Shown one piece after another: positions 10,341 through 60,574 of a stretch of DNA of 64,000 nucleotides (positions are counted from its first letter, which is position 1; each line of letters opens with the position of its first letter). The notes under the pieces were generated by a model. The model was not told the DNA's origin. It made no database searches and saw only the letters and a list, made by a program, of their open reading frames with translations. This DNA comes from Cetorhinus maximus (lineage: Eukaryota). The stretch spans positions 24,614,001 to 24,678,000 of the forward strand of contig NC_135901.1 in NCBI RefSeq assembly GCF_964194155.1, in the 5' to 3' direction. A program made the translations under genes and the position numbers.

Positions 10341-10731
10341 GAAGTTCAGCTCTTCTCTCTGACGGGATTTCCGTTTGTCCCTTTCACCATGTTCACCTTA
10401 ATTGTTTTCCATTTTCCTCCTGGTGTTTGTCAAGGTGTTTACCAAAACTCAGACACTACCATTAACACTCCCGCTGTCTTGTGTCTTGTCAAATTTCTCC
10501 TTGACTCCCACCTATCCTGACCTTCTATTTTGCTTCACCTGCTTCACCCCTTCTAAAACAGTATAAAATCCATCACATTTCTATTCCTCTTTAGCTCTGA
10601 AGAAGGGTTCTACAGACTCAAAATGTTCACTCCGTTTCTCTCTCCACAGATGATGCCAGACCTGCTGAGTTTTTCCAGCATTTTCTGGTTTCATTTTAGA
10701 TTTCCAGCATCTGCAGTATTTTGCTTTTGTC
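10341..10731 (+). mobile_element. Penelope-like element 3' fragment (older subfamily) with degenerate hammerhead
   Basis: CTGAAGA-AGGGTT-CTACA-GACTC-AAAA at ~10596-10623, followed by the tail. TSD TTAGGGAGAA(A/G)GTTAAT at 10324-10340 and 10732-10748. Confidence 0.75.
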
Positions 10732-13114: not shown

Positions 13115-15850
13115 TCTTTATTCATTCACGGGATATGGGCTTCACTGGCTGGGTCAGCATTTATTGCCCATCCCTAATTGCCCTTGAGAAGGGGGTGGTG
13201 AGCTGCCTTCTTGAACCGCTGCAGTTTATGTGGTGTAGGTACACCCACAATGCTGTTAGGAAGGGAGTTCCAGGATTTTGACCCAGTGACAGTGAAGGAA
13301 CGGCCTATATATTTCCAAGTCAGGATAGTGAGTGGATTGGAGGAAAACTTCCAGATGGCGGTGTTCCCATCTATGTTACCCTTGTCCTTCTAGATGGTAA
13401 TGGTAATGGGTTTGAAAGGTGCTGTCAAATGACCCTTGCTGAATTCCTGCTGTGCATCTTGTAGATGGTACACACTGCTGCTACTGTGCATTGGTGGTGG
13501 AGGGAGTGAATGTTCGTGGATGTGGTGCCAAACAAGGGGGCTGCTTTGTCCTCAGCGGCGTCAAGCTTCTTGGGTGTTCTGGGAGCTGCACTCATCCAGT
13601 CAAGTGGGGAGTATTCCATAGCACTCCTGACTTGTGCCTTGTAGACAGTGGACAGGCTTTGGGGAGTCAGGAGGTGAGTTACTCGTCACTGGATTCCTAG
13701 CCTCTAACATTCTCTCACAGCCACATTATTTATATGGCTAGTCCAGTTCAATTTCCGGTCAATGGAAACCTCCAGGATGTTTATAATGGGAGATTCAGCG
13801 ATGGTAATACCATTGAACATCCAGGGGTGATGGTTATATTCACTCTTGTTGGAGATGGTCATTGCTTGATACTTGTGTGGTGCAAATGTTACTTACCACT
13901 TGTTACTTACCACCTTAGCCTGGGTATTGTCCAGGTCTTGCTGCATTTGGAAATGGTCTGCTTCTATATCTGAGGAGTCATGAATGGTGCTGAACATTAT
14001 GCAATCATCAGTGAAAATTCCCACTTCTGACCTTATGATGGAAGGTCATTGATGAAGCAGCTAAGATGGTTGGGCCAAGGTCACTACTCTGAGGAACTCA
14101 TGCAGTCATGTCCTGGAGTTGTGATGACTGACCTCCAACAACCACAACCATCTTCCTTTGTGCTAGGCATGACTCCACCCAGTGGAGAGTTTTCCCCCTG
14201 ATTCCCATTGACTCCAATTTTTCTAGGGCTCCTTGATGCCACATTCATGCAAATGCGGCCTTGATACCAAGGGCAGTCATTCTCACCTCACCTTGGGGAT
14301 TCAGCTGTTTTGTCCATGTTTGAACCAAGGCTGTAATGAAGTCAGGAGCTGAGTGGCCCTGGCAGAACCCAAACTGGGCATCAGTGAGCTGGTTATTGCT
14401 AAGCAAGTGCCACCTGATAGCATTGTTGATGACCCCTTCCACTACTTTACTGACGATCAAGGGTAGACTGATGGGGCGTTTTTTTGTACAGGACATGTGG
14501 GCAATTTTCCACATAGCCGGGTAGATGCCAGTGTTGTAGCTGTACTGGAGCAGCTTGGCTATGGGTGCGGCAAGATCTGGAGCACAAGTCTTCAGTACTA
14601 TTGCCGGAATATTATCAGGGCCCACAGCCTTTGCATTATCCAGTGCCTTCAGCCATTCCGTGATATCACATGGAGTGAATCAAATTGGCTGAAGACTGGC
14701 ATCTGTGATGCTGGGGACCTCTGAAGGAGGCCAAGGTGGATCATCCACTCAGCTGGATTCACGGATTATAAATAACTTACACTGTTATGTGGAGTTCACT
14801 TCTCCCAAAGAATTCAATATTTTATCAGATGATTAATAATTCCCTGTCCTCCTCGTGGTGCAATACACTCACTTCTGGCTGAAGAGTGTAGAAAATTTTT
14901 CAGCCTTACCTTTTGCACTGATGTGCTGGGTTCCCCCATCATTGAGGGTGGGGATATTTGAGGAGCCTCCTCCTCCAGTGAGTTGTTTAATTGTCCACCA
15001 CCATTCATGACTGGATGTGGCAGGACTGCCGAGCTTAGATCTGATCTGTTGGTTGTGGGATCGCTTAGCCCTGTCATCACTTGCTGCTTATGCTGTTGGC
15101 ACACAAGTAATCCAGTGTTACAGCTTCACTAGGTTGACACCTCATTTTTAGGTATGCCTGGTGCTGCTCCTGGCACGCCCTCCTGCATTCTTCATTGAAC
15201 CAGCTTTGATCCCCTGGCTTGATAGTAATGGTGGAGTGGGGGATATGCCGGGCCATGAGGTCACATTGTAAAAACAAAAATACCTGGAAAAACTCAGCAG
15301 GTCTGGCAGCATCTGTGGAGAGGAACACAGTTAACATTTCGAGTCTGCACGACTCTTCAACAGAGTTTGTTGAAGAGTCGTGCAGACTCGAAATGTTAAC
15401 TGTGCTCCTCTCCACAGATGCTGCCAGACCTGCTGAGTTTTTCCAGGTATTTTTGTTTTTGTTTTGGATTTCCAGCATCCGCAGTTTTTGCTTTTATCTT
15501 AGGTCACAGATTGTGTTCGAGTACATTTCAGCTGCTGCTGATGGCCCACAGCGCCTCATGGATATCCAGTTTTGAGTTGCTATATCTGTTTGAAATCTAT
15601 CCCATTTAGCGCAGTGATAATGCCACACAACATGACCAAGGGTATCCTCAATGTGAAGGCCGGACTTTGCCTCCACAACGACTGTGCAGTGGTCACTCCA
15701 ACTGATACTGTGATGGACAGATGCATCTGCAGCAGACAGGTTGATGAGGGTGAGGTCAAGTATGTTTTGCCCTCTTGTTGGTTCTCTCAGCACCTGCCAC
15801 AGACCCAGCCTAGCAGTTTAGTCCTTTAGGATTCAGCCAGCTCGGTCACT
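13115..15850 (-). mobile_element. CR1-group LINE (second family; EN-RT ORF2, decayed)
   Basis: GPDNIPAIVLKTCAP...DAQFGFCQGHS and EPTRGQNILDL..ISWSDH. Same family as 26595-28885. Confidence 0.85.
15266..15500. mobile_element. Inverted pair of Penelope pLTR tails forming a 93-bp-arm palindrome
   Basis: Arms 15270-15362 and 15368-15460 (1 mismatch), loop GAGTT. TSD AGGTCACA at 15258-15265 and 15501-15508. Confidence 0.85.
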
Positions 15851-15854
15851 AATG

Positions 15855-16198
15855 GTGCCACCTATTGAGGCCATGAAAGTAATAATTCAATGAAATTTTG
15901 CGCTGCCCATCCAACCTCACCAAGCGACCTTTGGAGTTTTTTAGGAAACCACATCCACGGGTGGGGTGAGGTTTCCAACAGCAAATAAAAACTAAATAAA
16001 AACTTTAAAATTTCATTAATAACATGTCTCTACTCCTGACAGAGTCACATGAGGGGACATGTTCTTAACATTTGCATAAGTTTTAAATTGTTAATTTTAA
16101 AAATCTTCCTCAAATCCCGATCACGGGCGGCGGGCGGCTTCCCGACTGCTCCTGGACCCGCCCACCGAGCCTGCCCGACCACTGGAAAGTCCTGGCCC
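15855..16198 (-). mobile_element. Probable non-autonomous DNA transposon (Harbinger-type) end
   Basis: GC-rich end reading GGGCCAGGACTTTCC on the minus strand, abutting the L2 fragment. The other end was not found. Confidence 0.4.
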
Positions 16199-16740
16199 AT
16201 GTTTGAATCGCTCCAATCAGGTTTCCACCCCTGCCTCAGGACTGAACCAGCTCTTATCAAAGTCACAATGACATCCTATGTGACTGTGACAAGGATAAAC
16301 TCTCCCTTCTCCTCCTCGACCTGTCTGCAGCTTTTGACAATGTTGACCACATCATTCTACTCCTTCACCTCTCCCCTGTCGTCCAGCTGGGTGGGGCTGC
16401 TCTCTCCTGGTTCCATCCTTCTCTATCTAATTATAGTCAGAGAATCACTTGTAATGTCTTTCCTTCCCAATCCCACAGTTACCTCTGGTGTCCCCAAAGG
16501 ATCCAGCCTTGGTCTTCTCTTATTTCTCATCAACCTGCTCCACAGAATAACATCGTCTGAAAACACTGTCACTTATCACAATTACACTGACAGCTCCCAG
16601 CTCTGCCTCACCACCACCTCTCTCGACTTCCCCACTTTTGGTCAATTATCAGACTGTTTGTCTGACATCCAGTGGTGGATGTGCAAAAATTTCCCCCAAT
16701 TAAATATTGGGAAGAGTGAAGTTGTTTTCATTGTTTGAAT
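16199..16740 (+). mobile_element. L2 LINE RT fragment
   Basis: FESLQSGFHPCLRTEPALIKVT, LDLSAAFD-like motif, GVPKGSSLG, CLSDIQWWM..NFPQLNIGKSE. Confidence 0.85.
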
Positions 16741-20339: not shown

Positions 20340-21205
20340 TTAATAAATCGGTATTTCTGCACAGGATAGAGCTCTATGAGATTAGCTCAACAGCATTGAT
20401 TTTCTCCCTCTGGAAAGGCAATTTCTAAACAGGCAACAACACAAAACATTCCCTGGAAACGGCAAGGTCACTTGGTTCAGGCTGACATGTTAACATTCCT
20501 AAGTTGGTAGGATGGCGTCTTGTGTACCCCCTTATCCATGCAAGTGTTTAGAAAAGGCCAGGAAATGACGCTCAGCTTATCGAAAACTAAAAAACTGACC
20601 TGGAGCACGGCGACGAACAGGGGAGGAGTTAACCACCCTGACATTTTGGGTACCTGTCCTGTTTCCATTGGACAGAGGGGTCTGAATAGATGATTGACAC
20701 AGGGTAAGCCACCAGGAAAAGGGTAAATCAACAAGTGCTCAGGGACAGGGCTGTTGAGGTGGCAGTGCTCATCAGGCAGCCGCCTTCTCCAGATGGAAGA
20801 GGAGTTGGAGGAAGACCAAAGGAAGAGTTCCCTAACACTTCTGTTAGAGAGCAGAATGCTGTTATTACAAACTACTGAGATCAACGCTCTCTGTGTCAAC
20901 CGTCCGTTTGTCCTCTGGGGTCAGTAAACTGCTCTCAACTGTCACAGGTCATATACCTTTTCTGTCTAATTAGCTCGTGCATCGGGTCTAAACTGTTTTT
21001 TATTAATAAGCTATCTTAAAATTAATTACAAATAGTCGACTGCCTTTCTAAGGTATTTGTGGCTCCCAAATCAAAAATATTACACTTTCCTGGATCCCAA
21101 GGTTAGGAGAGACACTCTGGAAGGCACAAGGAGCTGGGACTTGTCCATGAGAGTAATCGAGGGTATGAGAACTGAAATAATCTAGAGTTAGAAAGGAGAA
21201 AAGGT
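20340..21205 (+). mobile_element. LTR-like element plus downstream segment, related to 43013-43991
   Basis: Shares CTGTCACAGGTCA, TTAATAAGCTA and GAGACACTCTGGAAGG...GTTAGAAAGGAGAAAAGG with the 43-44 kb element. Confidence 0.55.
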
Positions 21206-22717
21206 TCAGCCCTGGACGTGATTCTCAGCAGCAAAAACGAGAAAATCCAATGTTGCCGGTGACCTGTGAACTCGCTGGTGTCTCAGCAGGTGGTGTGAAC
21301 AAGTAAATCCCTTCCCACACTCAGAGCAGGTGTACGGCCTCTCCCCAGTGTGAATTCGCTGGTGCAAAGTGAGTTGAGATGATTTCCTGAACCCAGTCCT
21401 GCAGTGAGAGCACCTGAACGGTCTCTTCTCAGTGTGAACACGTTGATGGTACATCAGTTCTCCGGAAGTTTTATAGCACTTCCCGCAGTCCGAGCATTTA
21501 AAAGGTCTCTCCTCAGTGTGAACTCGCTGGTGTCTCAACAGGTTGGCTAACCGGCTGAATACCTTCCCACACTCAGAGCAGAGAAACGGTCTCTCCCTAG
21601 TGTGAACTCGTTGGTGTATCCACAAGTTGGCTGACTGAGTGAATCCTTTCCCACACTCGGAGCAGGTGAATGGTCTCTCCCCAGTGTGAACCCGCTGGTG
21701 TGTCAGCAGGTGGGACGAGCGAGTAAATGTCTTCCCACACTCAGAGCAGGTGAACGGTCTCTCCCCGGTGTGAATTCGCTGGTGTTTCACCAGATCAGAT
21801 GAATGAGCAAATCTCTTCCCACAGTCGGAGCAGAGGAACGGCTTCTCCCCAGTGTGAGTGCGCTGGTGCTCCACCAGATTAGATGACCGATTGAATCTCT
21901 TCCCACACTCAGTGCAGAAGAACGGCCTCTCCCCAGTGTGAATGCGCTGGTGTATCAGCAGGTCATTGCTTCTTTTAAAGGTCTTCTCACATTCAGAACA
22001 TTTAAAAGTTCTCTTATCAGAGTGAACGTGTTTGTGTTCAGTGTCTTGGGAGGATTCAGAAACTCTCTTGTCACACACGGAATAGGTGGACGACCTCTCC
22101 CCAGTGTGAACACCCTCGTGCTTCAGAAGTTGAACTGAACGGGTGAAGCTCTTCCCACACACGGAGCAAGTGAATGGCCTCTCGCTGGTGTGAGTGCGTT
22201 GGTGTCTCAGCAGTTCTCTGCATCTTTTAAAGGTCTTTTCACATTCTGAGCATTTAAAAGGTCTCTTTTCTGAGTGAACCAATTGGTGCTCAGTGTAATG
22301 GGAGGACTGAGCGAATCTCTTCCCACACTGGGGGCAGCTAAATGGCCTGTCCTTGGTGTGAACTCGCTGGTGCTCAGTGAGATGCACTGACTCACTGAAC
22401 GACTCCCCACAGTGAGAGCAACTGAACGGTCTCTCGTGTGTGTGAAGGAGCTGGTGCTCCGCGAGGCGGGAGGACAGCCTAAACCTCTTCCCGCAGTGGG
22501 AGCAACTGAATGGTCTCTCATCAGTGTGAACTTGGTGGTGTTGGACCAGTTCCTCAGAGGTTTCAAAGCTTTCCCCAGTGTTAGGGCACTGAAGAGGTTT
22601 CTCATCAAAGTGATCGAGCTGGTGTGCCAGCAGGTTGGATGAACACATGAATTTCTTCCCACACACGGAGCAGGTGAACGGACTCTCACTATTGCGAGTT
22701 TGCTGACGTGTCAGCAT
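21206..22717 (-). CDS. C2H2 zinc-finger protein, 17 finger units (15 canonical), no KRAB/SCAN visible
   Basis: Uninterrupted ORF from ATG 22717 (~503 aa). Acceptor ATTTTACAG at ~22906. The family stop TGA is changed to TCA, giving a short C-terminal extension. Confidence 0.88.
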   Translation of the reverse strand: MLTRQQTRNSESPFTCSVCGKKFMCSSNLLAHQLDHFDEKPLQCPNTGESFETSEELVQHHQVHTDERPFSCSHCGKRFRLSSRLAEHQLLHTHERPFSCSHCGESFSESVHLTEHQRVHTKDRPFSCPQCGKRFAQSSHYTEHQLVHSEKRPFKCSECEKTFKRCRELLRHQRTHTSERPFTCSVCGKSFTRSVQLLKHEGVHTGERSSTYSVCDKRVSESSQDTEHKHVHSDKRTFKCSECEKTFKRSNDLLIHQRIHTGERPFFCTECGKRFNRSSNLVEHQRTHTGEKPFLCSDCGKRFAHSSDLVKHQRIHTGERPFTCSECGKTFTRSSHLLTHQRVHTGERPFTCSECGKGFTQSANLWIHQRVHTRERPFLCSECGKVFSRLANLLRHQRVHTEERPFKCSDCGKCYKTSGELMYHQRVHTEKRPFRCSHCRTGFRKSSQLTLHQRIHTGERPYTCSECGKGFTCSHHLLRHQRVHRSPATLDFLVFAAENHVQG

Positions 22718-23429
22718 GTTTACCAGCTTTTTAATTCCTTCCAACAGGAGGAGCAGGTGAACAGCCTCTCACTAGTTTCCAGCTGAGACGGTCAATTAAA
22801 TCCCTTCAGATGTACAAATCTTCAGATCCCAATGAACCGACTGACTCTGTCAGGCGTGAGGTTTGGTTTGATTTTCCTGACCGTTAAATATCCTCTTCCA
22901 TTACCCTGTAAAATAAGTTTACAAAGAATTACATGGAATATACATTATACAAACAGGCCATTCAGTCTATCTAGTCTGTACTGGAGTTTCTACTCCACAC
23001 GAGTCTCCACCTATTCTGCTGACCTCAGCTCAGTCTTTCAGCACATCTTTCTAATACCTTTTCTCTCATGTTCTCATCTAGTTTCTTTTTGAAAGAGTCT
23101 CAGGTATTTCTCTCAACCACTTCCTGCAGTCGTGATTTCCACATTCTAATTACTGCCTGAGGAAAGATATATCTCCAGTTTTCCTGTTGGATTTATTTGT
23201 AACTATTGTGTAAACACGGCCCCCAGTATTGGGCAGACCAACAAGTGAAAACATTCTGTCCACATCGACATGCCCATCCTAATGAGGATTTTAAAGACCT
23301 ATACCAGAAGAGACAAATATTTCTCTTGGTTTGAGTTTGCCGTGTGTAAATCCTCCCCTTCTATCCCCCTCTAAAAGGAGTTTCCAAAGTCCATCCCTAT
23401 CAGTCCAGGATAGAAATGCACAACATTCT

Positions 23430-28885: not shown

Positions 28886-29244
28886 CAAGGATCAGTAAAC
28901 CATTCTCAGCTGTTATGGGTCGTGTGTCTTTTCTGAATATTTAACTGATGTATCATATCTAAACTGTTGCCTCTTAATAAAATTCTGAAAAATCATCTAT
29001 GACTTCAACTCCCGTTTTGGGTAATCTGTAAATCTCAGACTAAAATCTTTGTTTCCAGCATTCATCGTTAATCTTACTGGCTCTAAACGCAGTTGTAAAG
29101 GAGCTTTCTTTTCTGTGTCTAGGATCTCTGAACCATGGAAGAGAGCAGCTGGGATACATTTCTTACACACGTCAGGATTAACCCACATGTTCAGTCCAGG
29201 ATGTGATTAACAGCAGAAAAAACAGCAGAATCCAAATCCTGCAG

Positions 29245-29919
29245 TCACTCATGAACTCGCTGGTGTCTCAGCAGATCATTGCTGCTTTTAAAGCTCTCCT
29301 CAGGGTCAGAACATTTAAAGGGTTTCATATCAGAGTGAATACGCTGGTGTTTCAGCAGGTTGTATGACTGAGTGAATCCCTTCCCACATGCAGAGCAGGT
29401 GAACGGCCTCTGCCCAGTGTGAATTCGCTGGTGTACAGTGAGTTCAGATGATCGCCTGAACCCAGTCCCGCAGTGAGAGCATCTGAACGGTCTCTCGTCT
29501 GTGTGAATACGTTGATGGCATGTCACTTCCCCAGAACTTTTAAAGCGTTTCCCACAGTCTGGACATTTAAAAGGTCTTTCATCAGTGTGAACTCTCTGGT
29601 GTTTCTGCAGGTTAGATGCAGCAGTAAATCCCTTCCCACAGATGGAGCAGGTGAATGACTTCTCCCCACTGTGAATGTGATGGTGTCTCAGCAGATACTT
29701 TTTGCTTTTAAATTTCTTCTCACAGTCAGAACATTCAAAAGGTCTCTGATCCGTGTGAACATACTGGTGTGTTAACAGGCTGGATGACTGAGTGAATCCC
29801 TTCCCACAAGTGGAGCAGGTAAATGGTCTCTCCCCAGTGTGAGTGCGGCGATGAATTTCCAGCTCAGAAGGGTAACTGAAACCCTTCCCACAGTCCCCAC
29901 ATTTCCACGGTTTCTCCAT
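29245..29919 (-). CDS. C2H2 zinc-finger protein, 224 aa, 8 units (last degenerate)
   Basis: Intact [17 protein letters not shown]...HQRVHE. Acceptor TTTTACAG at ~30279. Confidence 0.88.
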   Translation of the reverse strand: MEKPWKCGDCGKGFSYPSELEIHRRTHTGERPFTCSTCGKGFTQSSSLLTHQYVHTDQRPFECSDCEKKFKSKKYLLRHHHIHSGEKSFTCSICGKGFTAASNLQKHQRVHTDERPFKCPDCGKRFKSSGEVTCHQRIHTDERPFRCSHCGTGFRRSSELTVHQRIHTGQRPFTCSACGKGFTQSYNLLKHQRIHSDMKPFKCSDPEESFKSSNDLLRHQRVHE

Positions 29920-30699
29920 GGTGCGGGTGTCTTTGTATCTCTCCAGATTGGATGATCAGTTGAAGCCTCATCCACTGACAGAATACATGTGTGATTTCTC
30001 TCCACTGTGAATGGGCTAATGTTTTACAGATTGTTTAACTGGTTAAGACTCTTTCCACAGTCAGTTCATTGGAACACGCTCACTCGGGTTTGTTTGTCTC
30101 AGTGATTTTCCAGTCACACTAATGCTTGAAATCTTTTCCCACAGATAGAACAGACAAACATTTCTCCTTCTACATTCAAAGGTGGATAATATTCAGGTCC
30201 TGATGAAACAAGTGACTGTCAGATCTTGATGCGATGTTTGGTTTAAGCTTTTATTTGTAATCCTCCCTTTCTAATACCCTGTAAAAGGAGTTTACAAAAG
30301 TACCACTGTCAGTAAAGAACAGAAATTCAGAGCAGACAATTCTAGTTTCTACGCAGCATTTTTTCCTCTCTCCCAACACACCTGTCCCAAACACTCCCCC
30401 TCCTGGTCTCTGGGGTGCTGAAATACCACCAAATCTCTGTTCCCCTACAAGATGGCCATAAATACACTCAGCTCGCTGAAGCAGCCCCACCTTCATAAGA
30501 TCATAAGAAATAGGTGCAACAGAGGCCAGTTGGCCCATCGAGCCTGCTCAATAAGATCATGGCTGATCTGATTCTGGTCTTCACTCCACTTTTCTCCCTG
30601 CAGCCATAACCCATGGCTGCCTTGTGGGTCAAAAATCAGTGCAGCTAACTCAGCCTTGAATATGTGCAATAGGGAAATGAATTCCTTCTGACAATGCTG

Positions 30700-31145: not shown

Positions 31146-31929
31146 CACGGTCTCCTCTACATTGGAGAGACCAAACGCAAACTGGGCGACCGTTTTGCGG
31201 AACACCTGCGGTCTGTCCGCAAGAAAGACCCAAACCTCCCTGTCGCTTGCCATTTTAACACTCCACCCTGTTCTCTTGCCCACATGTCTGTCCTTGGCTT
31301 GCTGCATTGTTCCAGTGAAGCCCAACGCAAACTGGAGGAACAGCACCTCATCTTCCGACTAGGCACTTTACAGCCTTCCGGGCTGAATATTGAATTCAAC
31401 AACTTTAGATCTTAAACTCCCCATCCCCACCCCGTTTCTCCGCTCCCCCCCCCCCTTTTTTTTCAATAATTTATATAGATTCTTCTTTCCCCACCTATTT
31501 CCATTATTTTTAAATCTAAAACTAAAACCTTGTTAGTCTGTCCACCCCATCCCCACTAGAGCTGTACTTTGAGTATCCTGTCTTCCATTCTTAATTAGCG
31601 CTTTTCTTAGACAAATATCACCACCTTCAACACCTCTTTGATCCTTTTGTCTGTGACATTTTTGATTATCTGCTCCTATCACTGCTTGCTTATCTCCACA
31701 ATCACCACACCCTCAACTTCTCTCTTCCCCCCCCCCCCCACCTTAAACCAGTTTATATTTCTCCCTTCTCCTAACTATGCTTCAGTTCTGCCGAAGGGCC
31801 ATGAAGGCTCGAAACGTTAACTGATTTCTTCTCCGCCGATGCTGCCAGACCTGCTGAGTTTTTCCAGGTAATTCTGTTTTTGTTTTGGATTTCCAGCATC
31901 CGCAGTAGCTTTTAGCTTTTTGTTTTTAT
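31146..31929 (+). mobile_element. Penelope-like element, 5'-truncated (GIY-YIG C-terminus, hammerhead, tail)
   Basis: LLYIGETKRKLGDRFAEHLRS..PVACHFN...LGTLQPSGLNIEF. TSD CCTATAGT at 31138-31145 and 31930-31937. Confidence 0.88.
31782..31824 (+). ncRNA. Hammerhead-like ribozyme, variant core CUGCCGA
   Basis: TCAGTT-CTGCCGA-A-GGGCC-ATGAA-GGCTC-GAAA-CGTT-AACTGA: 6-bp stem I, 5-bp stem II, palindromic stem III. Confidence 0.7.
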
Positions 31930-32104
31930 CCTATAGTTATTGATAGGGGACTTTCTGCAGCGCGGGGTGTTGTGGGTACACTAACCACCATAGAGATGAG
32001 TGAGTAATCAAGAAATGTTTTTTCCCCCGGTTGGCAAAATAGAAGATCTACGGATGAGGAGCATACTGGACGTGAAGCATAATAATTGGGTGCTGACACA
32101 GTTT

Positions 32105-34080
32105 ATTTTTGGAAAAGTATATTTTATTCATAAAATATCTAAAAGAACACTATAAACCATTTTAAAATGGCCACTTTGACAGTGCAATGATACTCAAACA
32201 TTCTACATAGATCATTTTGCAGTCTGACATGCTACAATACAATTGTGATACATGTAATATTTACTGTATACATCCAGTGTGACTCACTAATTTTTTTTGG
32301 AAAAATATACTTTATTCATTAAATATTTGAAAGAACATTATAAAACATTTCAAACTGGCCATCACAAAAATTGCAATCATATTCAAGTTATCCACATAGA
32401 TCATGAAGTGCTTGAATACAATAAATGAACATTACAGATATTTCAACATGGTCATTATAGACAGTGCCATGGTATTTAAGTTATCTACATGGATCATGCT
32501 GTACTCTGAGGTGCTTCAATACAATTGTGACACATGTAGTATTCGGTGTGAGTCATATAGCCTGAGGGGTCAATACAATTCCCAGCCCTTCTGTGCACTA
32601 TGACTGAAAGGTACTAGACATCGACCTTTCCCCATTGCACCTTTGCGGCGGCTTCCCCAAGCTTTAGTGCATCTCTCAGCACATATTCCTAGACCTTGGA
32701 ATGTGCCAGTCTGCAGCACTCGGTCAGGGAGAACTCTTTGCACTGGAAAACCAACAAGTTTTGGGCAGATCAAAGAGCGCCTTTCATCGAGTTGATGATC
32801 CTCCAGCTGCAGTTGATGTTTGTCTCAGTGTGTGTCCCTTGGAACAGCCCGTAGAGCAGAGTCCAGTGTCAAAGAACTGCTTGGGATGAACCTCGACAAA
32901 AACCACTACATTTCTCTCCAGACCTTCTTTGCAAAGGCACATTCCACAAGGAGGTGAACAACCACCTAAAGGGCAATGTGCGGAGGGGGTGAGACTCCTG
33001 CCATGTTGGAAGGATCTAATGGGGAGGGTCTTTCTCACCACCAGCCAAACTATGCCTTGGGTTGGAAAAGTTATGGAAATGAGGCTTTCTGCCAAATAAT
33101 TTTGACAGTCTGTTCGGGGAACCATCCAAGAGGATCTACCATCTCCTTTTCCCACAGGGCCTCTAGGACATTATGTGCTGACCACTGCCTGATGGACTTG
33201 TGTTCAACGGTTTTTTTTTAAATATTCGTTCATGGGATGGGATGGGCCAGCACTTATTGCCCACCACTAATTGCCCTTGTTTAGCGGGCATTTGAGGGTC
33301 AACCACATTGCAGTGGGCCTGGAGTCACACGTAAGCCAGACCAGGTAAGGACATCAAATTTCCTTCCCTAAAGGACATTAGTGAACCAGATGGGCTTTAA
33401 CAACAAACATCAATGTTTTTCAGAAATTCCAGATTTTTTTTTATTGAATTCAAATTCCACCACCTGCCATGGTGGGATTCGAACCCACGTCCCCAGTGCA
33501 TTACCCTGGGCCTCAGGATTACCAATCCAGTGACAATACCACTATGCCTCCACGTCCCCTAAAGGTGCTTCTCTGCATAATTTTTTCCACGAGGGGTAGG
33601 TGATATGGCATGGGTCTAACTCCTTTGAGTGTTCTGTGGAAGCGTGGCCCCCCCATCCTTCACAATACTGGGGACAGGTAGAACCTCAGCACGTAGTGAA
33701 ACTTGGTGTTTGCGTACCGAGGGTCTGCACACAGCTTGATGCAGCCACACACAAAGGTGGCCATCAGGATGAGAGCGATGTTGGTCACGTTTTTCTCCCT
33801 TCATCTAGAGATTTGTACATCATGTCCCTGTGAACACGATCCATTTTCGACCACCAGATAAAGTGAAAGATAGCTTGGCTGGTCGCCACAGCACAGGAGT
33901 GAGCCAGACCTGTATCATGTACAGCAACACCGAGAGTGCCTTACATCTGATGACCAAGTTCTTAGCCACAATGGAGAGGGACCGTCGCTCCAACATACCC
34001 AGTTTTCTTTTCACCATGGCCACTTGCTCCTTCCAGTTTCTAATGTACGCCCTGGTCCCTCCGAATCATATCCCCAGCAC
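32105..34080 (-). mobile_element. Tx1/L1-clade LINE 3' part with duplicated 3' end
   Basis: KLGMLERRSLSIVAKNLVIRC..LSVLLY and WLVVRKTLPIRSF..CPLGGC. A ~190-bp duplicated AT-rich end at 32105-32480. Confidence 0.7.
33210..33560 (-). mobile_element. tRNA-derived SINE nested in the Tx1 LINE
   Basis: Reverse B-box GGTTCGAATCCC, Deu-like core and tail. Confidence 0.8.
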
Positions 34081-36599: not shown

Positions 36600-38350
36600 G
36601 AACAAATGTTGAAATGTTTGCTCCACACCCACAGGGTTTCATCTGTTTAAAGCCACAAACAGAAAGCTCCAGTTTTCTCCTGGAGTTTGAGACAAATCAG
36701 CTTTCAAAATGATGCAGAGTTTCAGCCAATGAGGGAGATCTGGGTTCAGCCTCGCCCCTCACTCACTCCGATTGGATGGAGGACCAGCCGCTCACTTGGT
36801 CCTCCAGTGTCATCCCTTTTTCCTATTGGTCTGGAACTGCCGTCAATCAGCTGGGCATTGTGAGCTGGAGCATGCTCATATAAATATAAAAACAAAAAAC
36901 TACTGCGGATGCTGGAAATCCAAAACAAAAACGCATCCGCCCTCACGCCTTCTCCTCCCTCCCAGAAACATGATAGGGTCCCCCTTGTCCTCACTTATCA
37001 CCCCACCAGCCTCCGCATTCAAAGGATCATCCTCCGCCATTTCCGCCAACTCCAGCATTATGCCACCACCAAACACATCTTCCCTTCACCCCCCCTGGTG
37101 GCATTCCATAGGGATCATTCTCTCCGGGACACCCTGGTCCACTCCTCCATCAGCCCCTACTCCTCAACCCCCACCTATGGCACCTCCCCATGCAAATGCA
37201 AAATATGCAACACCTGCCCCTTCACTTCCTCTCTCCTCACCGTCCAAGGGCCCAAACACTCCTTTCAAGTGAAGCAGCATTTCATTTGCATTTCCCCCAA
37301 CTTAGTCTACTGCATTCATTGCTCCCAATGCGGTCTCCTCTACATTGGAGAGACCAAACGTAAACTGGGCAACCGCTTTGCAGAATACCAGCGGTCTGTC
37401 CGCAAGAAAGACCCAAACCTCCCTGTCGCTTGCCATTTTAACACTCCACCCTGTTCTCTTGCCCACATGTCTGTCCTTGGCTTGCTGCATTGTTCCAGTG
37501 AAGCCCAACGCAAACTGGAGGAACAGCACCTCATCTTCTGACTAGGCACTTTACAGCCTTCTGGACTGAATATTGAATTCAACAACTTTAGATCTTGAAC
37601 TCCCTCGTCCATCCCCACCCCTTTCCGTTTCTTCCCCCTCCCTTTTGTTTTTTCTAATAATTTACATAGATTTTTCTTTTCCCACCTATTTCCATTATTT
37701 TTAAATCTATACCTGTAATGCCCTGTCAGTCTTTCCACCCCACCCCCACTACAGCTGTACCTTGAGTGTCCTGCCATCCATTCTTAATTAGCACATTCTC
37801 TTAGATAATATCACCACCTTCAACACCTCTTTGTTCCTGTATCTGTGATATCTTTTGATTATCTGCTCCTATCACTGTTCGCTTGTGCCTACAACCCCGC
37901 CCCCCAACTTCTCTCTCTTACCCCGCCACCCCCTCTTAAACCAGCTTATATTTCACCCCTCTCCTAATTTTACTCAGTTCTGTTGAAGGGTCATGAGGAC
38001 TCGAAACGTCAAATCTTTTCTTCTCCGCCGATGCTGCCAGACCTGCTGAGTTTTTCAAGGTAATTCTGTTTTTGTTTTGGAGCAATGAGGGAGTTCCGGG
38101 TTCAGCCCCGCCCCTCACTCACTCCGATTGGATGGAGGACCATCCGCGCCCACTTGGTCCTCCAGTGTCATCCCTTTTTCCTATTGGTCTGGAATTGCCG
38201 TCAATCAGCCGGGCATTGTGAGCTGGAGCATGCTCAGCAGGAATGCTGCTGCGTACCGGTGCGCAGGCGCCGCGCTGAAAGTGTCTGGTGCATGCGCAGT
38301 CCGAGTGGTGTCTTGTTTGCGGAGATTTTTTTTCGATTCTGGAGGCGGCG
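36600..38350 (+). promoter_or_regulatory. Type A ZNF promoter, split and partly duplicated by a Penelope insertion
   Basis: GC box and two ATTGG boxes occur at both 36727-36878 and 38083-38236. NRF1-like sites at 38260-38298. Inverse of 52000-52320. Confidence 0.7.
36879..38082 (+). mobile_element. Penelope-like element with short inverted tail at its 5' side
   Basis: ORF 36909-37541 RVPLVLTYHP...CKICNTC..VYCIHCSQCGLLYIGETKRKL (GIY-YIG with CCHH insert). Hammerhead at 37975-38013. Inverted tail at 36879-36930. Confidence 0.9.
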
Positions 38351-38469
38351 GCTGGACGGGGAGGATTTGGAAACACTTTGTGGATCCGCAAACCCTGAGG
38401 AATAATTCTCAGCTCCTGGTTTGCAGCTGCGGGGCTTCTCCCTCCCGGGAACAGGCCCAGGTTAACGGC

Positions 38470-39444
38470 AACAAAAACAGAATTACCTGGAAAAACTCAG
38501 CAGGTCTGGCAGCATCGGTGGAGAAGAAATCAGTTAACGTTTCGAGTCCTCAAGACCCTTCAGCAGAACTGAGTATAGTTAGAAGAAAGGTGAAATATAA
38601 GCTGGTCTAAGGTGGGGGGCGGGGGGGGGGGAGAGAGAAGTTGAGGGTGGGGTGATTGTGGGGATAAGCAAGCAGTGATAGGAGCAGATAATCAAAAGAT
38701 GTCACAGACAAAAGGATCAAAGAGGTGTTGAAGGTGGTGATATTATCTAAGAAAAGTGCTAATTAAGAATGGAAGGCAGGATACTCAAGGTACAGCTCTA
38801 GTGGGGGTGGGGTGGAAAGACTAACAAAGTTTTAGTTTTAGATTTAAAAATAATGGAAATAGGTGGGAAAAGAAGAATCTATATAAATTATTGAAAAAAA
38901 AGGGGGGGAGGGGAGAGAAACGGGGTGGGGATGGGGGGAGGGGGAGTTTACAATCTAAAGTTGTTGAATTCAATATTCAGCCCGGAAGGCTGTAAAGTGC
39001 CTAGTCGGAAGATGAGGTGCTGTTCCTCCAGTTTGCGCTGGGCTTCACTGGAACAATGCAGCAAGCCAAGGACAGACATGTGGGCAAGAGAACAGGGTGG
39101 AGTGTTAAAATGGCAAGCGACAGGGAGGTTTGGGTCTTTCTTGTGGACAGACCGCAGGTGTTCTGCAAAGCGGTCGCCCAGTTTGCATTTGGTCTCTCCA
39201 ATGTAGAGGAGACCGCATTGGGAGCAACAAATGAAGTAGACTGAGTTAGGGGAAATGCAAGTGAAATGCTGTTTCACCTCTCTCCTAACTATACTCAGTT
39301 CTGCCGAAGGGTCGTGAGGACTCGAAACATTAACTGATTTCTTCTCCACCGATGCTGCCAGACCTGCTGAGTTTTTCCAGGTAATTCTGTTTTTGTTTTG
39401 GATTTCCAGCATCCGCAGTAGCTTTTAGCTTTTTGTTTTTATCT
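38470..39444 (-). mobile_element. Penelope-like element with inverted pLTR, inserted in ZNF exon 1
   Basis: GIY-YIG ORF 38948-39270. Inverted repeats 38470-38595 and 39272-39396. TSD CCAGGTTAACGGC at 38457-38469 and 39445-39457. Hammerheads at 38530-38572(-) and 39295-39337(+). Confidence 0.9.
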
Positions 39445-39850
39445 CCAGGTTAACGGCCGCCATCCTGGGTCAGCGAGTGGAGGATGGTTCACATCAGAGG
39501 ATGGGGGAGGGGGACAATAAATAAGAGGTTACACTTTGGGCTCAAATCAATTTGGAATCTGAACTGTGGGAAGGAAGGAAACCCTGGGAGGTGGGCGGGG
39601 AGGATTCAGAAACACCCGCTGGAGGCCCCAAACCCCCAATAAGACTCATTGATTTTATTGTCAGTCTGCAGACAGGAGCTGGAGAACTGAACCCAGGCAG
39701 AGGAGAGGGAGGGAGAAAACTGGGAGTGGAGGAAAGAAATGGTGAGATGGGTTTGGATTTCAGGCCAGGGAGGAGGGAGAGTGTGTAGGATGGGGATGTA
39801 CAGCTTTCTGTACAGCTCTCTCACTTTTTTTCTGTTTTAAATCAATTTAA

Positions 39851-40354
<504 letters not shown>

Positions 40355-40409
40355 ACCATGATCATTCTGATCATTTAGGTTTGTTTCTGCTGATGTTTGA
40401 TGTTATTCA

Positions 40410-44190: not shown

Positions 44191-45280
44191 TCAGTTGTGA
44201 ACACGCTGGTGTCTCATTAAGTGGGATGAATGAGTGAATCCATTCCCACACATGGAGCAGGTGAAAGGCCTCTCCTCAGTGTGAATTCGCTGGTGTCTCA
44301 GCAGAACACCTGGGGTTTTAAAAGTCTTCTCACATTCTGAACATTTGAAAGGTCTGTTATCAGTGTGAACAAGTTGATGTGAATTGAGGTGAGCTCGCCG
44401 AGTGAATCCTTTCATGCACACAGAGCAGGTGAACAACCTTTCCCCATTGTGAACCTGCTGGTGTGTCAGTAGGTGGGATGAACGGGTCAATCCCTTCCCA
44501 CATACGGAGCAAGTGAATGGCCTCTCCCCTGCGTGAATGCGCTGGTGCATCAGCAGATCCCTTGTGGTTTTAAAGTTCTTCTCATAGTCAGAACATTGGA
44601 AAGGTTTCCGATCAGAGTGAACTCACTGGTGCAGGTTGAGGTTGGTCAAACAAATAAATCCCTTCTGGCAGATGGAATAGATAAACGGCCTCTCCTCAGT
44701 GTGAACTCGCCGGTGTCTCAGCAGGTTACCTGTGGTTTTAAAGCTCTTCCCACATTCAGAACATTGGAAAGGTCTGATATCAGTGTGAACAAGTTGGTGT
44801 GAACTGAGGTGAGATAGTCGAGTGAATCCCTTCCCACACACGGGGAAGGTGAGTGCCCTCTCCCTGGTGTGAACTTGTTGGTGTTTTATGAGGTTCAGTG
44901 ATTGTCTAAACACTTTCCCGCAATGAGAACAACTGAACTGTCTCAGTGTGAACAAACTGGTGCTTGACCAGGTCGTCTCATCTTTTAAAGCTCTTCTCAC
45001 AATCAGAGCAGTTAAACAGCCTCTCATCAATGTGCACCAGCTGGTGTCTCAGCAGCTGGGACAGAAAATTGAATCTCTTCCCACACACAGAGCAGGTTAA
45101 CGGGTTCTTCCCGGTGTGAGTCCTCTGGTGTATATGTAAGCTGGAAGATAATGTGAATCCCTCCCCACACACCGAGCAGGTGAACGGCCTCTCCCCGGTG
45201 TGACTGCGTCGATGAATCTCCAGCTGCGATGGGTAATTGAATCCCTTCCCGCAGTCCTCACATTTCCATAGTTTCTCCAC
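44191..45280 (-). pseudogene. C2H2 ZNF pseudogene, ~13 finger units
   Basis: GTG start (VEKLWKC), TGA at 44978 and 44623, frameshift at ~44942, several Cys losses. Confidence 0.88.
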
Positions 45281-46668
45281 AGTGTCCGTGTCCTTAAGTC
45301 TTTCCAGGATGGACAATCAGTTGAAGCCTCATTCACACACAGAACACGTGTACGGCTTCTCCACACTGCGAATGGTTCTGTTTGTGTTTAGGCTGTGTAA
45401 CTGGTTAAAGCTCATTCCACAATCAGTGCACTGGAACACTCTCACTCGGGTGTGTGTGTGTGTGTCTCGGTGATTCTCCCAGTTGTTTCCAATCTTTCCC
45501 TACAGTCAGAACAGACAAACATTTCTCCTTCCACATTCAAAAGCCGATGATGTTCAGGTCTTGATGAAATGAGTCATTCTGTCAGATCCTGATGTGATTT
45601 TTGGTTTGAGTTACCGATCTGCAAATCCTCCCCTTCTAAAGCCCTGTAAAAGGAGATTACAATAATCATCACTGTCAGTCCAGGACAGAAATTCACAACT
45701 GACAATTCTAGTTCCTATGGAACATTTTTTTCTCCCTTATTCCCCCAAAGCTGTAAATCCCCATCCCACATACTCTCCCTTCTTCCAGGGCTAAAATCTA
45801 AATAAAATGTTGGATAATTCTTTCTGTATTCTTTTAACAATTCCGATAGAGACAGCAACATGTTCGATAATTCACATCATTCATGACTCGTGACAAAACA
45901 TTACGCAATCAAACATCTGAATGTGTGTTCCCTTGCTAAAATGTGGGAAAAACGCTGTCTGGACTTCAGTAGAAAACACCAGAATCCCACCTCCCATTCA
46001 CATGGAAGTAAATGCAATGGAGTGCAGGAGAAAAGATACCATTCTGCAAATAAGCTATGGGACAAATACACTACAAGACAGCCCAATCACCTACTGTATA
46101 AAACTCAAATAGGATGTAAATGATTGAGAATTTAATGAATTCAAGCTGACAACATTTAATCAAAGGACTTTAATAGAAAATGCAGTAAACCTTTCATTTC
46201 TATTCTATAGATTAAGGAGTCCTCCATTTTGTAACATATTGAAATGACTTGTATGCTGAAATCATAATTGTGCAATCCTTAGATTGATTTGTATTTTAAT
46301 ATTGTCTATAACTATGTCATGAATGATGATTACTTGTTTTATTTGTATCATCATCACAATTCAATGCCTGGCACTGTGATGACTTTTCTATAAACCAATT
46401 ATCTATCGAACCAAATCAATTATCTATTAATCTGAATCACCCTGACCGACCACACAGAATAACAGACGTTAACCTTGTGTCTAGAACTTACTGTGTTGAG
46501 ATTTAATAAGGTGGTTTCTCCACACCTCCCAGGGTTTCCATCCTTCTTTCTCTCTCTCTGTCTAACTAAGTTAAACTCAGTCTTTTGTCCCATTTTGGTT
46601 TCTGGTTTTTTTCATGCCCAATGTCACCTTGAGGGCATGTTTTACAAGGAGCCATTTCTTAATAGTTT

Positions 46669-47090: not shown

Positions 47091-47608
47091 TATGATTCAC
47101 AATTCAGGTTGTGATTATTTTGTGGGAATAAGGTGGAGACTGACCATAGCGCCAATCAATAAAGTCAGGAACTCGACGTTGTGTAACCTACAAGGTTACA
47201 GACGAAGAACTGGATAGTGGGATTGGGCTGGCACAGATATGATGGGCCATATGGCCTCCTTCTGTCCTGTAAAGTTTCATTTTCAGTTTCCATCGCTGAA
47301 GATGTTGAAGACTGAGATTTAGACAGACAGGATTTTGGTCTCTCAGGGAATTGAGGATCATGGTGGAACAGGCAGGAAAGTGGAATTGATGCTGAAATCG
47401 GCCATGATCGTGTTGAATGGCGGAGCAGGCAGGACAGGTCGTCTAGTCTAATCCTGCTCCTCGCCCTTATGTTCTTACAGCAGCACTGTCTGCTTTCATC
47501 TAAACTCATTGACAGACATCCAGAATATTAAACTCCAGCCCAGTTACAGGGGTTACTAACAGCAACAGAAACAAAGGAATCATTAACAGCAGAACCCAAC
47601 CTCTGCAG

Positions 47609-48199
47609 TCACTTGTGAACTCACTGGTGTGTCAGCAAGTGAGACGATCGAGCAAATCTCTTCCCACACACAGAGCAGGTGAATGGCCTCTCCCTAGTGT
47701 GAACTTGCTGGTGTCTCAGCAGGTTTGATGACTGAGAAAACCCCTTCCCACACACACAGCAGGCGAATATCTTCTCCCCTGTGTGAACCCGTTGATGTGT
47801 CACCAGGTTGGACGATGAAGTGAATCCCTTCCCACACACGGAGCAGGTGTATGGCCTCTCCCCGGTGTGAACTCGCTGGTGTTGAATGAGGTGAGACGAC
47901 TGTCTGAATTTCTTCTCACATTGAGAACAACTGAATGGTCTCTCGTCAGTGTGAACAAGCTGGTGTTTAATTAGATCCGGTGAGATTTTAAAGCATTTCT
48001 CACAGTCAGAGCATTTAAAAGGCCTCTCGTCAGTGTGAACTCGCTGGTGTAACTGAAGGCTGGACATCAGAGTGAATCCCTTCCCACACATGGAACAGAT
48101 GTACGGTCTCTCCCCAGTGTGAGTGCGTCGATGAGCTTCCAGCTGGGATGGGCAAATGAATCCCTTCCCACAGTCCCCACATTTCCACGGTTTCTTTGT
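47609..48199 (-). pseudogene. C2H2 ZNF, 7 fingers, start codon lost and TGA in last finger
   Basis: ACA AAG instead of ATG GAG (TKKPWKC), HQ*VHK* at 47621. An internal ATG at 48091 could give 156 aa. Confidence 0.75.
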
Positions 48200-48902
48200 G
48201 GTCTCAGTGTCCTTGTATCTCTCCAGGTTGGATGATCAGTTGAAGCCTCATCCACACACAGAACACATGTACAGTCTCTCCCCGCTGTGAATGGTGTGAT
48301 GTTTTCTCAGGCTGTGTAACTGGTTAAAGCTCTATGCACAGTCAGTGCACTGGAACACTCTCACTCGGGTGTGTGTGTCTTGGTGCTTTTCCAGTTACAC
48401 TGATGCTTGAAATCTTTTCCCACAATTAGAACAAACATTTCTCTTTCAACATTCAAAGGCCAATGATATTCAGGTCCTGATGAACCGAGTGACTCTGTCA
48501 GATCTTGATGAGATGTTTGGTTTGAGTTTCCCATCTTCAAATCATCTTCTAATATCCTGTAAACAAAGATTTCAAAAGTCATCACTGTCAGTCCAGGATA
48601 GAAATTCAGAACAGACAATTCTAGTTTCTATAGAACATACTTTCTTCTCTTGTTCTCTCAAACATGTTGTGCAATTAAACTAAAAGAGCCCAAAATCAGT
48701 ATCAAAGCCCCAACTAGAGCGAAGACAACCTTCCTAACTAAACCAGAATGTTGTTTCCAGTGTATCTGAGACATTCTGTACCCTGAGGTACCCACCGGTG
48801 GTGGAAGGCATCAACCGTACGGGTGGACACCACATGCTCCCTCTCCAGAGCCACCCAGACATGGACAAGACCATGGAAGAGAGGCCAGCAGTCTCTTATG
48901 GG

Positions 48903-49003
48903 GTAGAAACAGAAAATTCTGGAAAAACTCAGCAGGTCTGGCAGCGTCTGTGGAGAAAGAAACAGTGTTAACGTTTCAAGACTGATATGACTCTGCTTCA
49001 GAG
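48903..49003 (-). mobile_element. Penelope pLTR tail fragment
   Basis: Reverse of CTGAAGCAGAGTC..GAAACGTTAAC..GCTGCCAGACCTGCTGAGTTTTTCCAG. Confidence 0.7.
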
Positions 49004-49935: not shown

Positions 49936-50139
49936 TTCATGAATTAAGGGGAATGATCACAGATGGTGCTTTTAAAAAGGGACACTGCAGCCCCGAATAT
50001 CAGTGACACCTCCAGAATATTAAACTCCAGCCAATTATAGGGGTTGTTAACATCAGCAGAATCAAACCTGACATTTGTCAGACTATCAATTCTGGATGTG
50101 ATTAACAGCAGTGATAACAGCAGAATCCCACCCCTGCAG

Positions 50140-50814
50140 TCACTTATGAACTCGCTCATGTGTCACTGGGTTGAAGGACCGAGTGAATCTCTTCCCACAC
50201 ACGGAGCAGGTGAATGGTCTCTCTCCAGTGTGAACTCTCTGATGTGCCAGGAGAGCAGATGAACATCTGAAACTCTTTCCACAGTCCGTGCAGCTGAATG
50301 GCTTCTCCTCAGTGTAAATTTGCTGGTGCGACTCGAGGGCGGTTGATACAGTGAAACCCTTCCCACACACGGAGCAAGTGAACGGTCTCTCCCCAGTGTG
50401 AACTCGCTGGTGTGCAATGAGGGTGGATGACTGCCTGAAACTTTTTCCACAGGAAGTGCAGCTAAATGGCTTCTCCCCGTTGTGAACTCGCTGGTGTGAC
50501 CTAAGGCCGGATGAATGAGTGAATCCCTTCCCACACACAGGGCAAGTGAATGGCTTCTGCCCAGTGTGAAATCGCTGGTGTATATTAAGGTCAGATGAAG
50601 ACCTGAACCTCTTTTCACAGTGAGTGCAGCTGAATGGCCTCTCCTCAGTGTGAATTCGCTGGTGTGACATGAATTTGGTTGTCTGAGTGAATCCCTTCCC
50701 ACAGACGGAACAGATGAACGGCTTCTCCCCGGTGTGAATGCGTCGATGGATTTCCAGCTGAGATGGATAATTGAATCCTTTACCACAATCCTTACATTTC
50801 CATGGTTTTACCAT
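50140..50814 (-). CDS. C2H2 zinc-finger protein, 224 aa, 8 units (sixth has H to Y)
   Basis: Intact [13 protein letters not shown]...VTHERVHK. Closest paralog of 6621-7559. Acceptor TTTTATAG at ~51179. Confidence 0.88.
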
Positions 50815-51706
50815 GGTGCCAGAGTTCTTATGTCTCTCCAGGTTGAATAATCAGTTAAAGTCTTGTCCACACAGAAAACACGTGTACGGTCTCTCCCTGC
50901 TGTGAATGGTATGATGTTTTTTCAGGCTATGTAACTGGTGAAAGCTCTTTCCACAGTCAGTGCACTGAACACTCTCACTCGGGTGTGTGTGTGCCTCAGT
51001 GTTTTTCCAGTCACGCTGATGCTTGAAATCTTTTCCCACAGACAGAACAGACAAGCATTTCTCCTTCCACATTCAATTGCCGATGATATTCAGGTCCTGA
51101 TGAATCGAGTGACGGTTTTAAATCTTGATGTGAAGTTTGATTTGAGCTTCCCTCTGTAAATCTTCACCTTCTAATATCCTATAAAAGGAGTTCACAAAAC
51201 TCTTAACTGTCAGCACAGCATAGAAATTCAGAACAGACAATTCTAGTTTCTATGGACTATTTCTTCCTCTCGTTTCCCCAAAGCTGTAAATGCCCGTCCC
51301 ACACACTCTCCCTCCCCCGGGCTGAAATCCAAACCCATCTCACCATCTCCACCATTTCTTTCCTCCACTCCCAGTTTTCTCCCTCCCTCTCCTCTGCCTG
51401 GGTGCAGTTCTCCAGCTCCTGTCTGCAGAGTGGGAAGAAAATTAATGAGTCAATCATTTTCTCTCCTGGTCACTGGGACTGTGACTCGCTTCAGCACCAC
51501 AAAGAGCACCATTTACAGCAGGGAGAAACCATACACGTGTTCTGCATGTAGTCAAGGTTTCAACTGATCATCTCTCTTGTTAAATAACAAGTGCAATCAC
51601 ACTGGGATAAACTGTGTCAATCACAGAATGCGTCTTATTGGGGATTTGGGGCCTCCAGCGGGTGTTTCTGAATCCTCCCCGCCCACCTCCCAGGGTTTCC
51701 TTCCTT

Positions 51707-52883: not shown

Positions 52884-53069
52884 GAAGCTTAATACTGTTA
52901 TCATTCGGAACAACACAGATTATAAAGAAAATACTGATCTCAAAGACAATGTCTTGTACTATGTTGTGCTGAATCAGGTTTAAAGGGCTAAATGATGTAC
53001 GTTTTCTATCTTGAAAAATTATTTTAAAATCTGGAACTTAGATAGTGATTAGGTGGGCATGTTTGGATC

Positions 53070-57152: not shown

Positions 57153-57875
<723 letters not shown>

Positions 57876-57934
57876 CTGCAGGGGTTGGATTCTGTTGTTA
57901 TTGCTGCTGTTAATCACATCCAGGATTGATAGTA

Positions 57935-60568: not shown

Positions 60569-60574
60569 TGGAAG

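Follow-up and report, generated by a model that had tools for sequence, protein, structure and literature searches.

The genome of Cetorhinus maximus carries an autonomous Penelope-like element (PLE) whose pseudo-LTRs contain a minimal type I hammerhead motif in which position 6 of the core, canonically an A, is a pyrimidine. This pyrimidine is a trait of the lineage; it is old, and it has not returned to A. We place the motif among the variants of PLE hammerheads, and not among proven hammerhead ribozymes, because position 6 departs from the canonical core and cleavage is only predicted.

Hammerhead-like sites in the window

The window that we analyzed is a stretch of 64,000 nt from C. maximus (GCF_964194155.1, NC_135901.1:24,614,001-24,678,000, forward strand). 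A sequence-only reading had described five hammerhead-like sites in it, with the cores CUGCCGA (31788 and 39301), CUGUUGA (37980, and 15363 on the minus strand) and CUGCUGA (38566, minus strand). Scanning both strands with the pattern CTGNNGA followed by stem II and GAAA returned six sites. Five are the named ones, each with the core claimed for it, the additional A and both described arms of a 5-bp stem II; the sixth, at 23178 on the minus strand, is unrelated. The stem I described as usual fails in two copies: the one at 15357-15363 lacks its own 5' arm, because it belongs to an inverted pair cut at the hammerhead 5' edge, and at 37980 the 3' arm reads AAAUCU. The older relative at 10596 does keep CUGAAGA, but the copy is decayed, with GAAA changed to AAAA.

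The genome contains 23,407 matches to a 35-letter pattern in which the core is free to vary, and none to its reversed control, so the motif is not a product of chance. An Rfam search of the window (E<=5) returned no hammerhead match. For the motif at 31782-31824, the hammerhead fold is predicted at -12.6 kcal/mol, compared to -12.8 for the minimum-energy fold; for the 37980 copy, the two values are -2.4 and -8.0 kcal/mol.

The PLE copies of the window are listed in Table 1. The one that carries the motif at 31782-31824 clusters with the GGGCC/GGCUC subfamily. The copy at 36880-38081 contains a short inverted tail piece (36880-36932); it is flanked by a direct duplication of ~152 bp (36727-36878 and 38083-38236, 94% identical), a length unusual for target-site duplications. 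The inverted-pair insertion at 38470-39444 lies between two identical copies of a 13-bp duplication (38457-38469 and 39445-39457). Because the sites at 38566 and 39301 are the two arms of this one insertion, the difference between CUGCUGA and CUGCCGA within it is probably a later CpG change; CUGCUGA clades do occur elsewhere in the genome.

The cluster that hosts these insertions is formed by tandem C2H2 zinc-finger reading frames with an 84-bp period (6600-7600, 21200-22800, 29200-30000, 39900-40400, 44200-45300, 47500-48300, 50100-50900 and 57100-57900). The window also holds a tRNA-like fragment (33471-33531, minus strand; weak Rfam match to the tmRNA clan) that is probably the head of a tRNA-derived SINE, and frame fragments at 9717-10196, 16040-16738 and 60539-61713 which we take to resemble a LINE reverse transcriptase, endonuclease and esterase-like ORF1.

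Table 1 Hammerhead-like motifs and PLE copies in the window.
Feature	Position	Strand	Remarks
Type I minimal hammerhead-like motif, C6 at 31791	31782-31824	+	pattern scan, fold
Stem I of this motif	31782-31787/31819-31824	+	
Core CUGCCGA	31788-31794	+	
Extra A	31795	+	
Stem II	31796-31800/31806-31810	+	
GAAA	31811-31814	+	
Palindromic ACGU	31814-31817	+	U17 = 31818
Predicted cut	between 31818 and 31819	+	
Downstream stem GAUGCUG/CAGCAUC	31838-31844/31894-31900	+	6/7 pairs invariant in 29 distinct copies
5'-truncated PLE copy	31148-31930	+	ORF 3' end ~31148-31421, pseudo-LTR, 3' tail
PLE copy	36880-38081	+	endonuclease-coding ORF end, pseudo-LTR, U6 hammerhead 37974-38016
Inverted-pair insertion	38470-39444		minus arm 38470-39277, plus arm 39272-39443
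Hammerhead CUGCUGA, minus arm of this insertion	38530-38572	-	
Hammerhead CUGCCGA, plus arm of this insertion	39295-39337	+	
Inverted pair, older U6 subfamily (GAGUC/GACUC)	15270-15503		both arms cut at hammerhead 5' edge
Young-lineage copy	52789-52885	+	truncated inside core (starts at G8-A9)
Old A6-family copy, decayed	10514-10728	+	CUGAAGA at 10596, G12 = A
Old A6-family copy, decayed	2277-2489	-	
Old A6-family copy, decayed	48903-49003	-	

The motif belongs to an autonomous Penelope-like element

The hammerhead lies ~360-400 nt 3' of a frame that ends in an endonuclease domain; in tandem copies, it is ~360 nt past the stop codon and ~155 nt before an open frame. Searching the genome with a piece of the protein gave 105,209 first-look candidates, of which 150 were scored; several of these sit in open frames of ~924 codons. 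We retrieved 20 of the loci with the longest ORFs for analysis of the element. They contain partial tandems (pseudo-LTR, ORF, pseudo-LTR) and head-to-head inverted pairs, which is the Penelope layout. The ORF, of ~917 aa, combines reverse transcriptase (RT) and GIY-YIG domains (Pfam RVT_1, E=2e-6; GIY-YIG, E=2e-4; both slightly below the curated cut-offs). The YIDD motif is found in 11 of 11 ORFs, and in L093 and L097 a C-X4-C-X2-C linker lies between the RT and the endonuclease. The predicted cut site in L097 is 153 nt before the ATG, leaving the hammerhead entirely upstream of the ORF.

Five ORFs of the youngest group (L091, L092, L095, L097 and L099) are 99.2-99.8% identical in DNA, and even the most distant pairs among the 11 ORFs compared are ~97% identical. 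The family is therefore autonomous and recently mobile, which bears out the mobility first read from the window. In 400 kb sampled at fixed intervals there are 28 profile matches to the broad family, about half of them from the lineage with a pyrimidine at position 6 (Y6). The 3' ends of copies fall into two clusters downstream of the predicted cut, +60 to +79 (60 of 115) and +100 to +119 (40 of 115); the first lies in the loop of the downstream GAUGCUG/CAGCAUC stem and the second beyond the stem.

A second ribozyme was not found in the element, either by pattern search in the 20 loci or by Rfam in the four elements scanned (4/4). A match to the HDV-like CPEB3 ribozyme family at L103:9223-9297 (28.5 bits, E=0.0011, under the gathering score) lies outside the PLE. 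We also considered a non-LTR retrozyme, a class of non-coding hammerhead tandem repeats, and rejected it: the ~917-aa ORF is intact, and copies are dispersed or in inverted pairs.

Position 6 is a fixed pyrimidine

The sequence-only reading had proposed that position 6 was already a pyrimidine in the young master elements when they transposed, and the genome agrees. Among 10,444 exact matches to one young pattern, 10,412 have C or U at this position and thus depart from the canonical CUGANGA; only 32 have a purine (24 A, 8 G). With the free-core pattern, a hand count of the first 100 of the 23,407 matches listed gave 73 C6, 27 U6 and 0 A6. For an intermediate family (9,233 matches), the first 100 listed comprise 72 U6, 25 A6, 2 G6 and 1 C6. 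By hand count, A6 is present in 84 of the 100 matches listed for an older PLE hammerhead family (716 matches) and in 85 of the 100 listed for a sister PLE family with a different stem II (237 matches).

Every element hammerhead found in the 20 long-ORF loci, in 5' and 3' pseudo-LTRs, is C6 or U6; none has the A6 that intact young copies might have been expected to show had the reading been wrong. The genome counts and the intact long-ORF loci rule out decay, in which Y6 hammerheads would be damaged copies of an A6 master. An alternative register that restores A6 is likewise ruled out by a gapless one-to-one alignment with the CUGAAGA and CUGAUGA relatives. In 65 copies from loci chosen by their protein alone, the core is CTGCCGA, CTGTTGA or CTGCTGA in 56; the remainder are two CTACCGA (both arms of L099), one CTGACGA, two other U6 cores and four old-family neighbours. 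In public assembled contigs, one contig from organism B reads CUGUUGA in an older-subfamily context, and the loose-end majorities in contigs from organisms A and B read CUGAUGA.

A single ladder of subfamilies

A FastTree tree of 105 of the 251 parsed copies, those that reach the ORF, forms one ladder: CUGAAGA on long branches, then CUGAUGA, then CUGUUGA, with CUGCUGA and CUGCCGA nested inside. The core thus passed from A6 to U6 to C6 in one master lineage. A6 revertants, which we sampled deliberately, appear as scattered, unamplified tips in the displayed part of the tree. Divergence at the ORF end is 0.074 among old U6 copies and 0.005 among the youngest copies; at third positions, the oldest U6 copies and the youngest differ by 0.17. 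A6 was therefore lost long ago, and its loss persisted through many rounds of amplification. The change had been placed in the young masters; these do have the pyrimidine, but it is older, began as U6 and spans many successive subfamilies.

The tree and the loci bear on the idea that Y6 RNA is only a substrate, cut in a mixed dimer by the A6 hammerhead of an older or sister family. Although the CUGAUGA subfamily would accommodate its ACGU stem III and the inner arms of stem I, we regard this as highly improbable: C6 or U6 stands in both hammerheads of intact tandem elements, the sampled A6 families look old and decayed on their long branches, and a pure substrate would need no CUG..GA or stem II of its own.

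Across subfamilies, the six letters from 16.2 to 1.3 around the cut read GUUAAC, GUCAAC, GUCGAC or GUUGAC and are often self-complementary. A1.1 changed to G twice, and the resulting U-G pair in stem I was kept both times.

The rest of the hammerhead core is retained

Among the first 100 free-core matches listed, with nine bases left free, 90 have all of the other free core bases intact. The ten exceptions are three G8A, five G12A, one G5A and one A13C, and eight are CpG transitions, so no large subfamily has lost another core base. The canonical core bases other than A6 (C3, U4, G5, G8, A9, G12, A13, A14, A15.1 and U16.1) are all in place. In 162 Y6 copies, H17 is U (102) or C (60) and never G; G10.1 is found in 161, C11.1 in 157 and the extra A in all 162, counts that are partly fixed by the search patterns. 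Most of these copies have ACGU (15.2 C in 156/162, 16.2 G in 153/162, U16.1 in 161/162). Loop 3 is absent, and the palindromic 15.1-16.1 would permit a dimer, as in minimal PLE hammerheads.

We scored change at the subfamily level from alleles common to the observed copies, in 92 copies of the lineage; two mis-assigned copies had been dropped from the tree set. In this sample, for part of which the search patterns fixed the core, none of the 12 core columns changed, compared to 13 of the remaining 30 hammerhead columns (Fisher p=0.008), and 0 of 10 core columns compared to 104 of 340 upstream pseudo-LTR columns (p=0.04); the comparison with third codon positions (0 of 10 versus 24 of 199) is not significant (p=0.61). 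The changes fell on the loop, N7, H17 and stem pairs, and the core bases other than position 6 are unchanged in every subfamily. The stretch immediately downstream, which is not part of the ribozyme, is about as conserved.

Pairing was analyzed in an alignment of 30 hand-picked Y6 copies, 29 of them distinct. Stem II is 99.3% paired in the distinct copies. It had been said to covary: its arms are as described, and there is one compensatory event by way of a U-G wobble (U-A in 18, C-G in 9, U-G in 2) together with one A-U/G-U switch. The covariation score was reached in 0 of 500 shuffles, yet the shuffles ignore relatedness and the signal is a single event inherited by many copies, so that it does not amount to independent statistical covariation. 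Changes in the inner stems preserve pairing (U-A to U-G to C-G; A-U/G-U; U-A to U-G at 2.1-1.1). In stem I, the inner four pairs hold in 115 of 116 cells, and the outer two are broken in some subfamilies. The downstream GAUGCUG/CAGCAUC stem, also noted as conserved, is present and invariant, but covariation does not support it because all but one of its pairs never vary.

Selection on the fold after the loss of A6 is supported by these patterns but not proven. Selection might instead have been relaxed when A6 was lost, the rest of the master-lineage hammerhead not yet having decayed. With a third-position divergence of only 0.17, it is not improbable that 10 core sites would show no change, as the p value of 0.61 indicates, and the broken outer pairs of stem I would fit. 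We nonetheless consider relaxation improbable, given that 14 of 43 hammerhead columns changed at the subfamily level with none among the 12 core columns, and that the compensatory change in stem II and a restored 6-bp stem I both came after A6 was lost.

A splice-donor-like CAG/GTA(A/T)TT lies at 31864-31873, 49 nt past the predicted cut, and is found in all Y6 subfamilies; nearly all Y6 copies have the GT, and 22 copies of the CUGAAGA family have CA (CCAGCA). At the 5' edge of stem I, an AG follows a pyrimidine-rich tract. The assembled contigs of 22 public runs, most of which are only presumed to be RNA, contained no spliced GT..AG joint.

Search for genomic traces of cleavage

The 5' ends of copies show no clear spike at the predicted cleavage site. 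Of 12 full-length copies with a start codon, seven run through an intact 5' hammerhead and five begin at +24 to +83. Patterns allowing four mismatches found 54 junctions at the cut site compared to 13 at +4 and 16 at -4, a raw excess of 3- to 4-fold. We inspected 12 of the 54: 11 are inverted, three of them through stem I microhomology. In the other eight inverted junctions, both arms end 0-7 nt from the cut site, a weak hint in favour of cleavage. A wider pattern gave a flat profile, in which -1 to +1 holds 13 of the 72 usable junctions, about the expected number (~13); the 72 are a by-eye tally of the 100 listed among 1,043 matches, 28 having been dropped as internal deletions, duplications or other families. 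A script applied to 30 of the wider-pattern loci placed one of 23 junctions at the site and two at -1.

Four independent tiny inverted insertions (L211, L212, L216 and L219) share the same junction, with arms that start at 0 and +2 relative to the predicted cut; one arm ends at each of the two 3' sites, and six of the 54 cut-site matches show this junction.

Both arms of L099 (6702-6830 and its inverted partner), an insertion with an intact ORF, have G5A; damage to the core therefore does not prevent insertion. Cofolding predicted a minimum-energy form that pairs stems I and II between molecules and not the ACGU dimer; for a stem of 4 bp, this speaks neither for nor against the dimer. Absence of ends at the cut site discriminates poorly, because the hammerhead of an anole PLE cleaves with the element protein and yet leaves no RNA-seq ends at its site (PMC11167929).

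Alternatively, there may be no useful cleavage, with the fold and most of the core recognized by the element's protein, or by the transcription or splicing machinery, as part of the 3' reverse-transcription signal. We see this as possible, though we doubt it. Downstream, an equally invariant stretch encloses both 3'-end clusters, cleavage has left no clear genomic trace, and L099 inserted with its damaged core; in the anole, hammerhead mutants insert unimpaired in vitro (PMC11167929), and Naiad PLEs reported without canonical hammerheads still amplify (PMC8557442). However, the positions that changed (N7, H17 as U or C, loop 2 and compatible stem pairs) are the ones that can vary in a catalytic hammerhead, and no subfamily-level change affects the catalytic G8 or G12. 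Moreover, the minimal RNA that the anole element requires for activity maps to the ORF's first 172 nt, for the most part past the hammerhead core (PMC11167929).

A possible attenuated ribozyme

We put the chances at about even that the motif is an attenuated ribozyme, assisted by dimer formation or by protein. What is observed is that the motif stands in both pseudo-LTRs of intact elements and that many inserted cDNAs run through an uncut hammerhead. A tandem transcript would bring two hammerheads together, and these would pair through the ACGU palindrome; the element's own protein would probably be needed and may assist folding, as in the anole. Cleavage would be slow or late, so that most RNA would still be intact at the onset of reverse transcription from two start sites, ~65 and ~115 nt downstream. 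The RNA behind every copy with a 3' hammerhead had not been cut at that hammerhead; fast cleavage would therefore destroy the template, and a slower core would cost little or even help. Such a core would be tolerated or mildly favoured, and an A6 revertant would gain nothing.

An attenuated ribozyme would explain why the pyrimidine was fixed while the remaining core bases were retained. Against it stand the comparison with third codon positions and the conservation of the downstream stretch, so that the constraint might reflect binding or a promoter function, as well as the missing wall of 5' ends at the cut site and the G5A in both arms of L099. In the one ribozyme examined, A6C costs >10,000-fold in Mg2+ relative to Mn2+ (PMC7151607), and minimal PLE hammerheads already have low activity (PMC4209133); we found no data in the literature on the activity of U6 hammerheads. 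A more specific version, which we hold to be unlikely, is that the protein or the dimer supplies the contacts of A6, such that, at physiological Mg2+, cleavage by U6 and C6 hammerheads takes place only in the element RNP. If true, a ribozyme core base would have been handed over to a protein, and a cleavage switch would be tied to the retrotransposition cycle.

Comparison with known systems

For PLE hammerheads, processing of precursor RNA, a non-catalytic function and hitch-hiking have all been proposed (PMC4209133, PMC8557442, PMC11167929). The shark lineage is a natural experiment on their role: a successful autonomous element kept a change that slows hammerheads, retained the rest of the core and did not revert. 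The series from A6 to U6 to C6, together with intact young elements, makes the question directly testable. Descriptors built on CUGANGA miss one of the commonest hammerhead-like motifs of this genome, with at least 23,407 exact matches in the younger subfamilies alone; some PLEs reported to be without canonical hammerheads may therefore deserve a second look. We found no report of a PLE lineage with a fixed U6 or C6 in the literature searched; a paper by Lunse, Weinberg and Breaker (RNA Biol 14:1499), which lay outside this search, reportedly concerns small PLE hammerhead variants and may bear on novelty.

The closest relatives are the minimal hammerheads of metazoan PLEs, for which an extra nucleotide, a loopless palindromic stem III, a dimer model and a U3-A8 variant were described by Cervera and De la Pena (2014, PMC4209133). 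The shark motif shares with them its presence in both pseudo-LTRs, the extra nucleotide between 9 and 10.1, G10.1-C11.1, the absence of loop 3, the palindromic 15.2-16.2, a short stem I, a presumed action as dimers and the massive dispersal of truncated copies. It differs at position 6: U3-A8 is the sole core variant that this survey describes, whereas here U6 and then C6 became fixed. All 56 representative motifs in its Fig. S3 (56/56) have A6; cartilaginous fish are not among their sources. The survey's descriptor demanded the core boxes, so C6 or U6 hammerheads would escape it.

A natural A6C hammerhead is known from phage Bcep176, with low activity in Mg2+ and a preference for Mn2+ (PMC3088659, PMC7151607); the rate given for the natural C6 hammerhead is 0.0041 per min at 1 mM Mg2+ (PMC7151607). 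It shares C at position 6 with the shark motif, and an engineered test core, CUGCUGA, is identical to that of one subfamily here. In contrast, Bcep176 has a single phage motif with measured activity, and the shark motif, whose activity is predicted, is of the minimal dimer type and is present in tens of thousands of copies.

In the anole Poseidon element PAc, the hammerhead cleaves only with the element protein, and uncut RNA is the main template for insertion (PMC11167929). PAc and the shark element both have a single ORF with RT and GIY-YIG domains, a hammerhead near the junction of pseudo-LTR and ORF and two internal 3'-end sites that define the tail, and we propose that uncut RNA is likewise the main template in the shark. 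Unlike that of PAc, the shark hammerhead lies wholly upstream of the ORF; the shark element also differs in its tail of ~50 nt and its Neptune-like C-X4-C-X2-C linker. PLEs of the Neptune clade have a CX2-5CxxC linker between RT and endonuclease (PMC8557442), a feature that the shark element shares.
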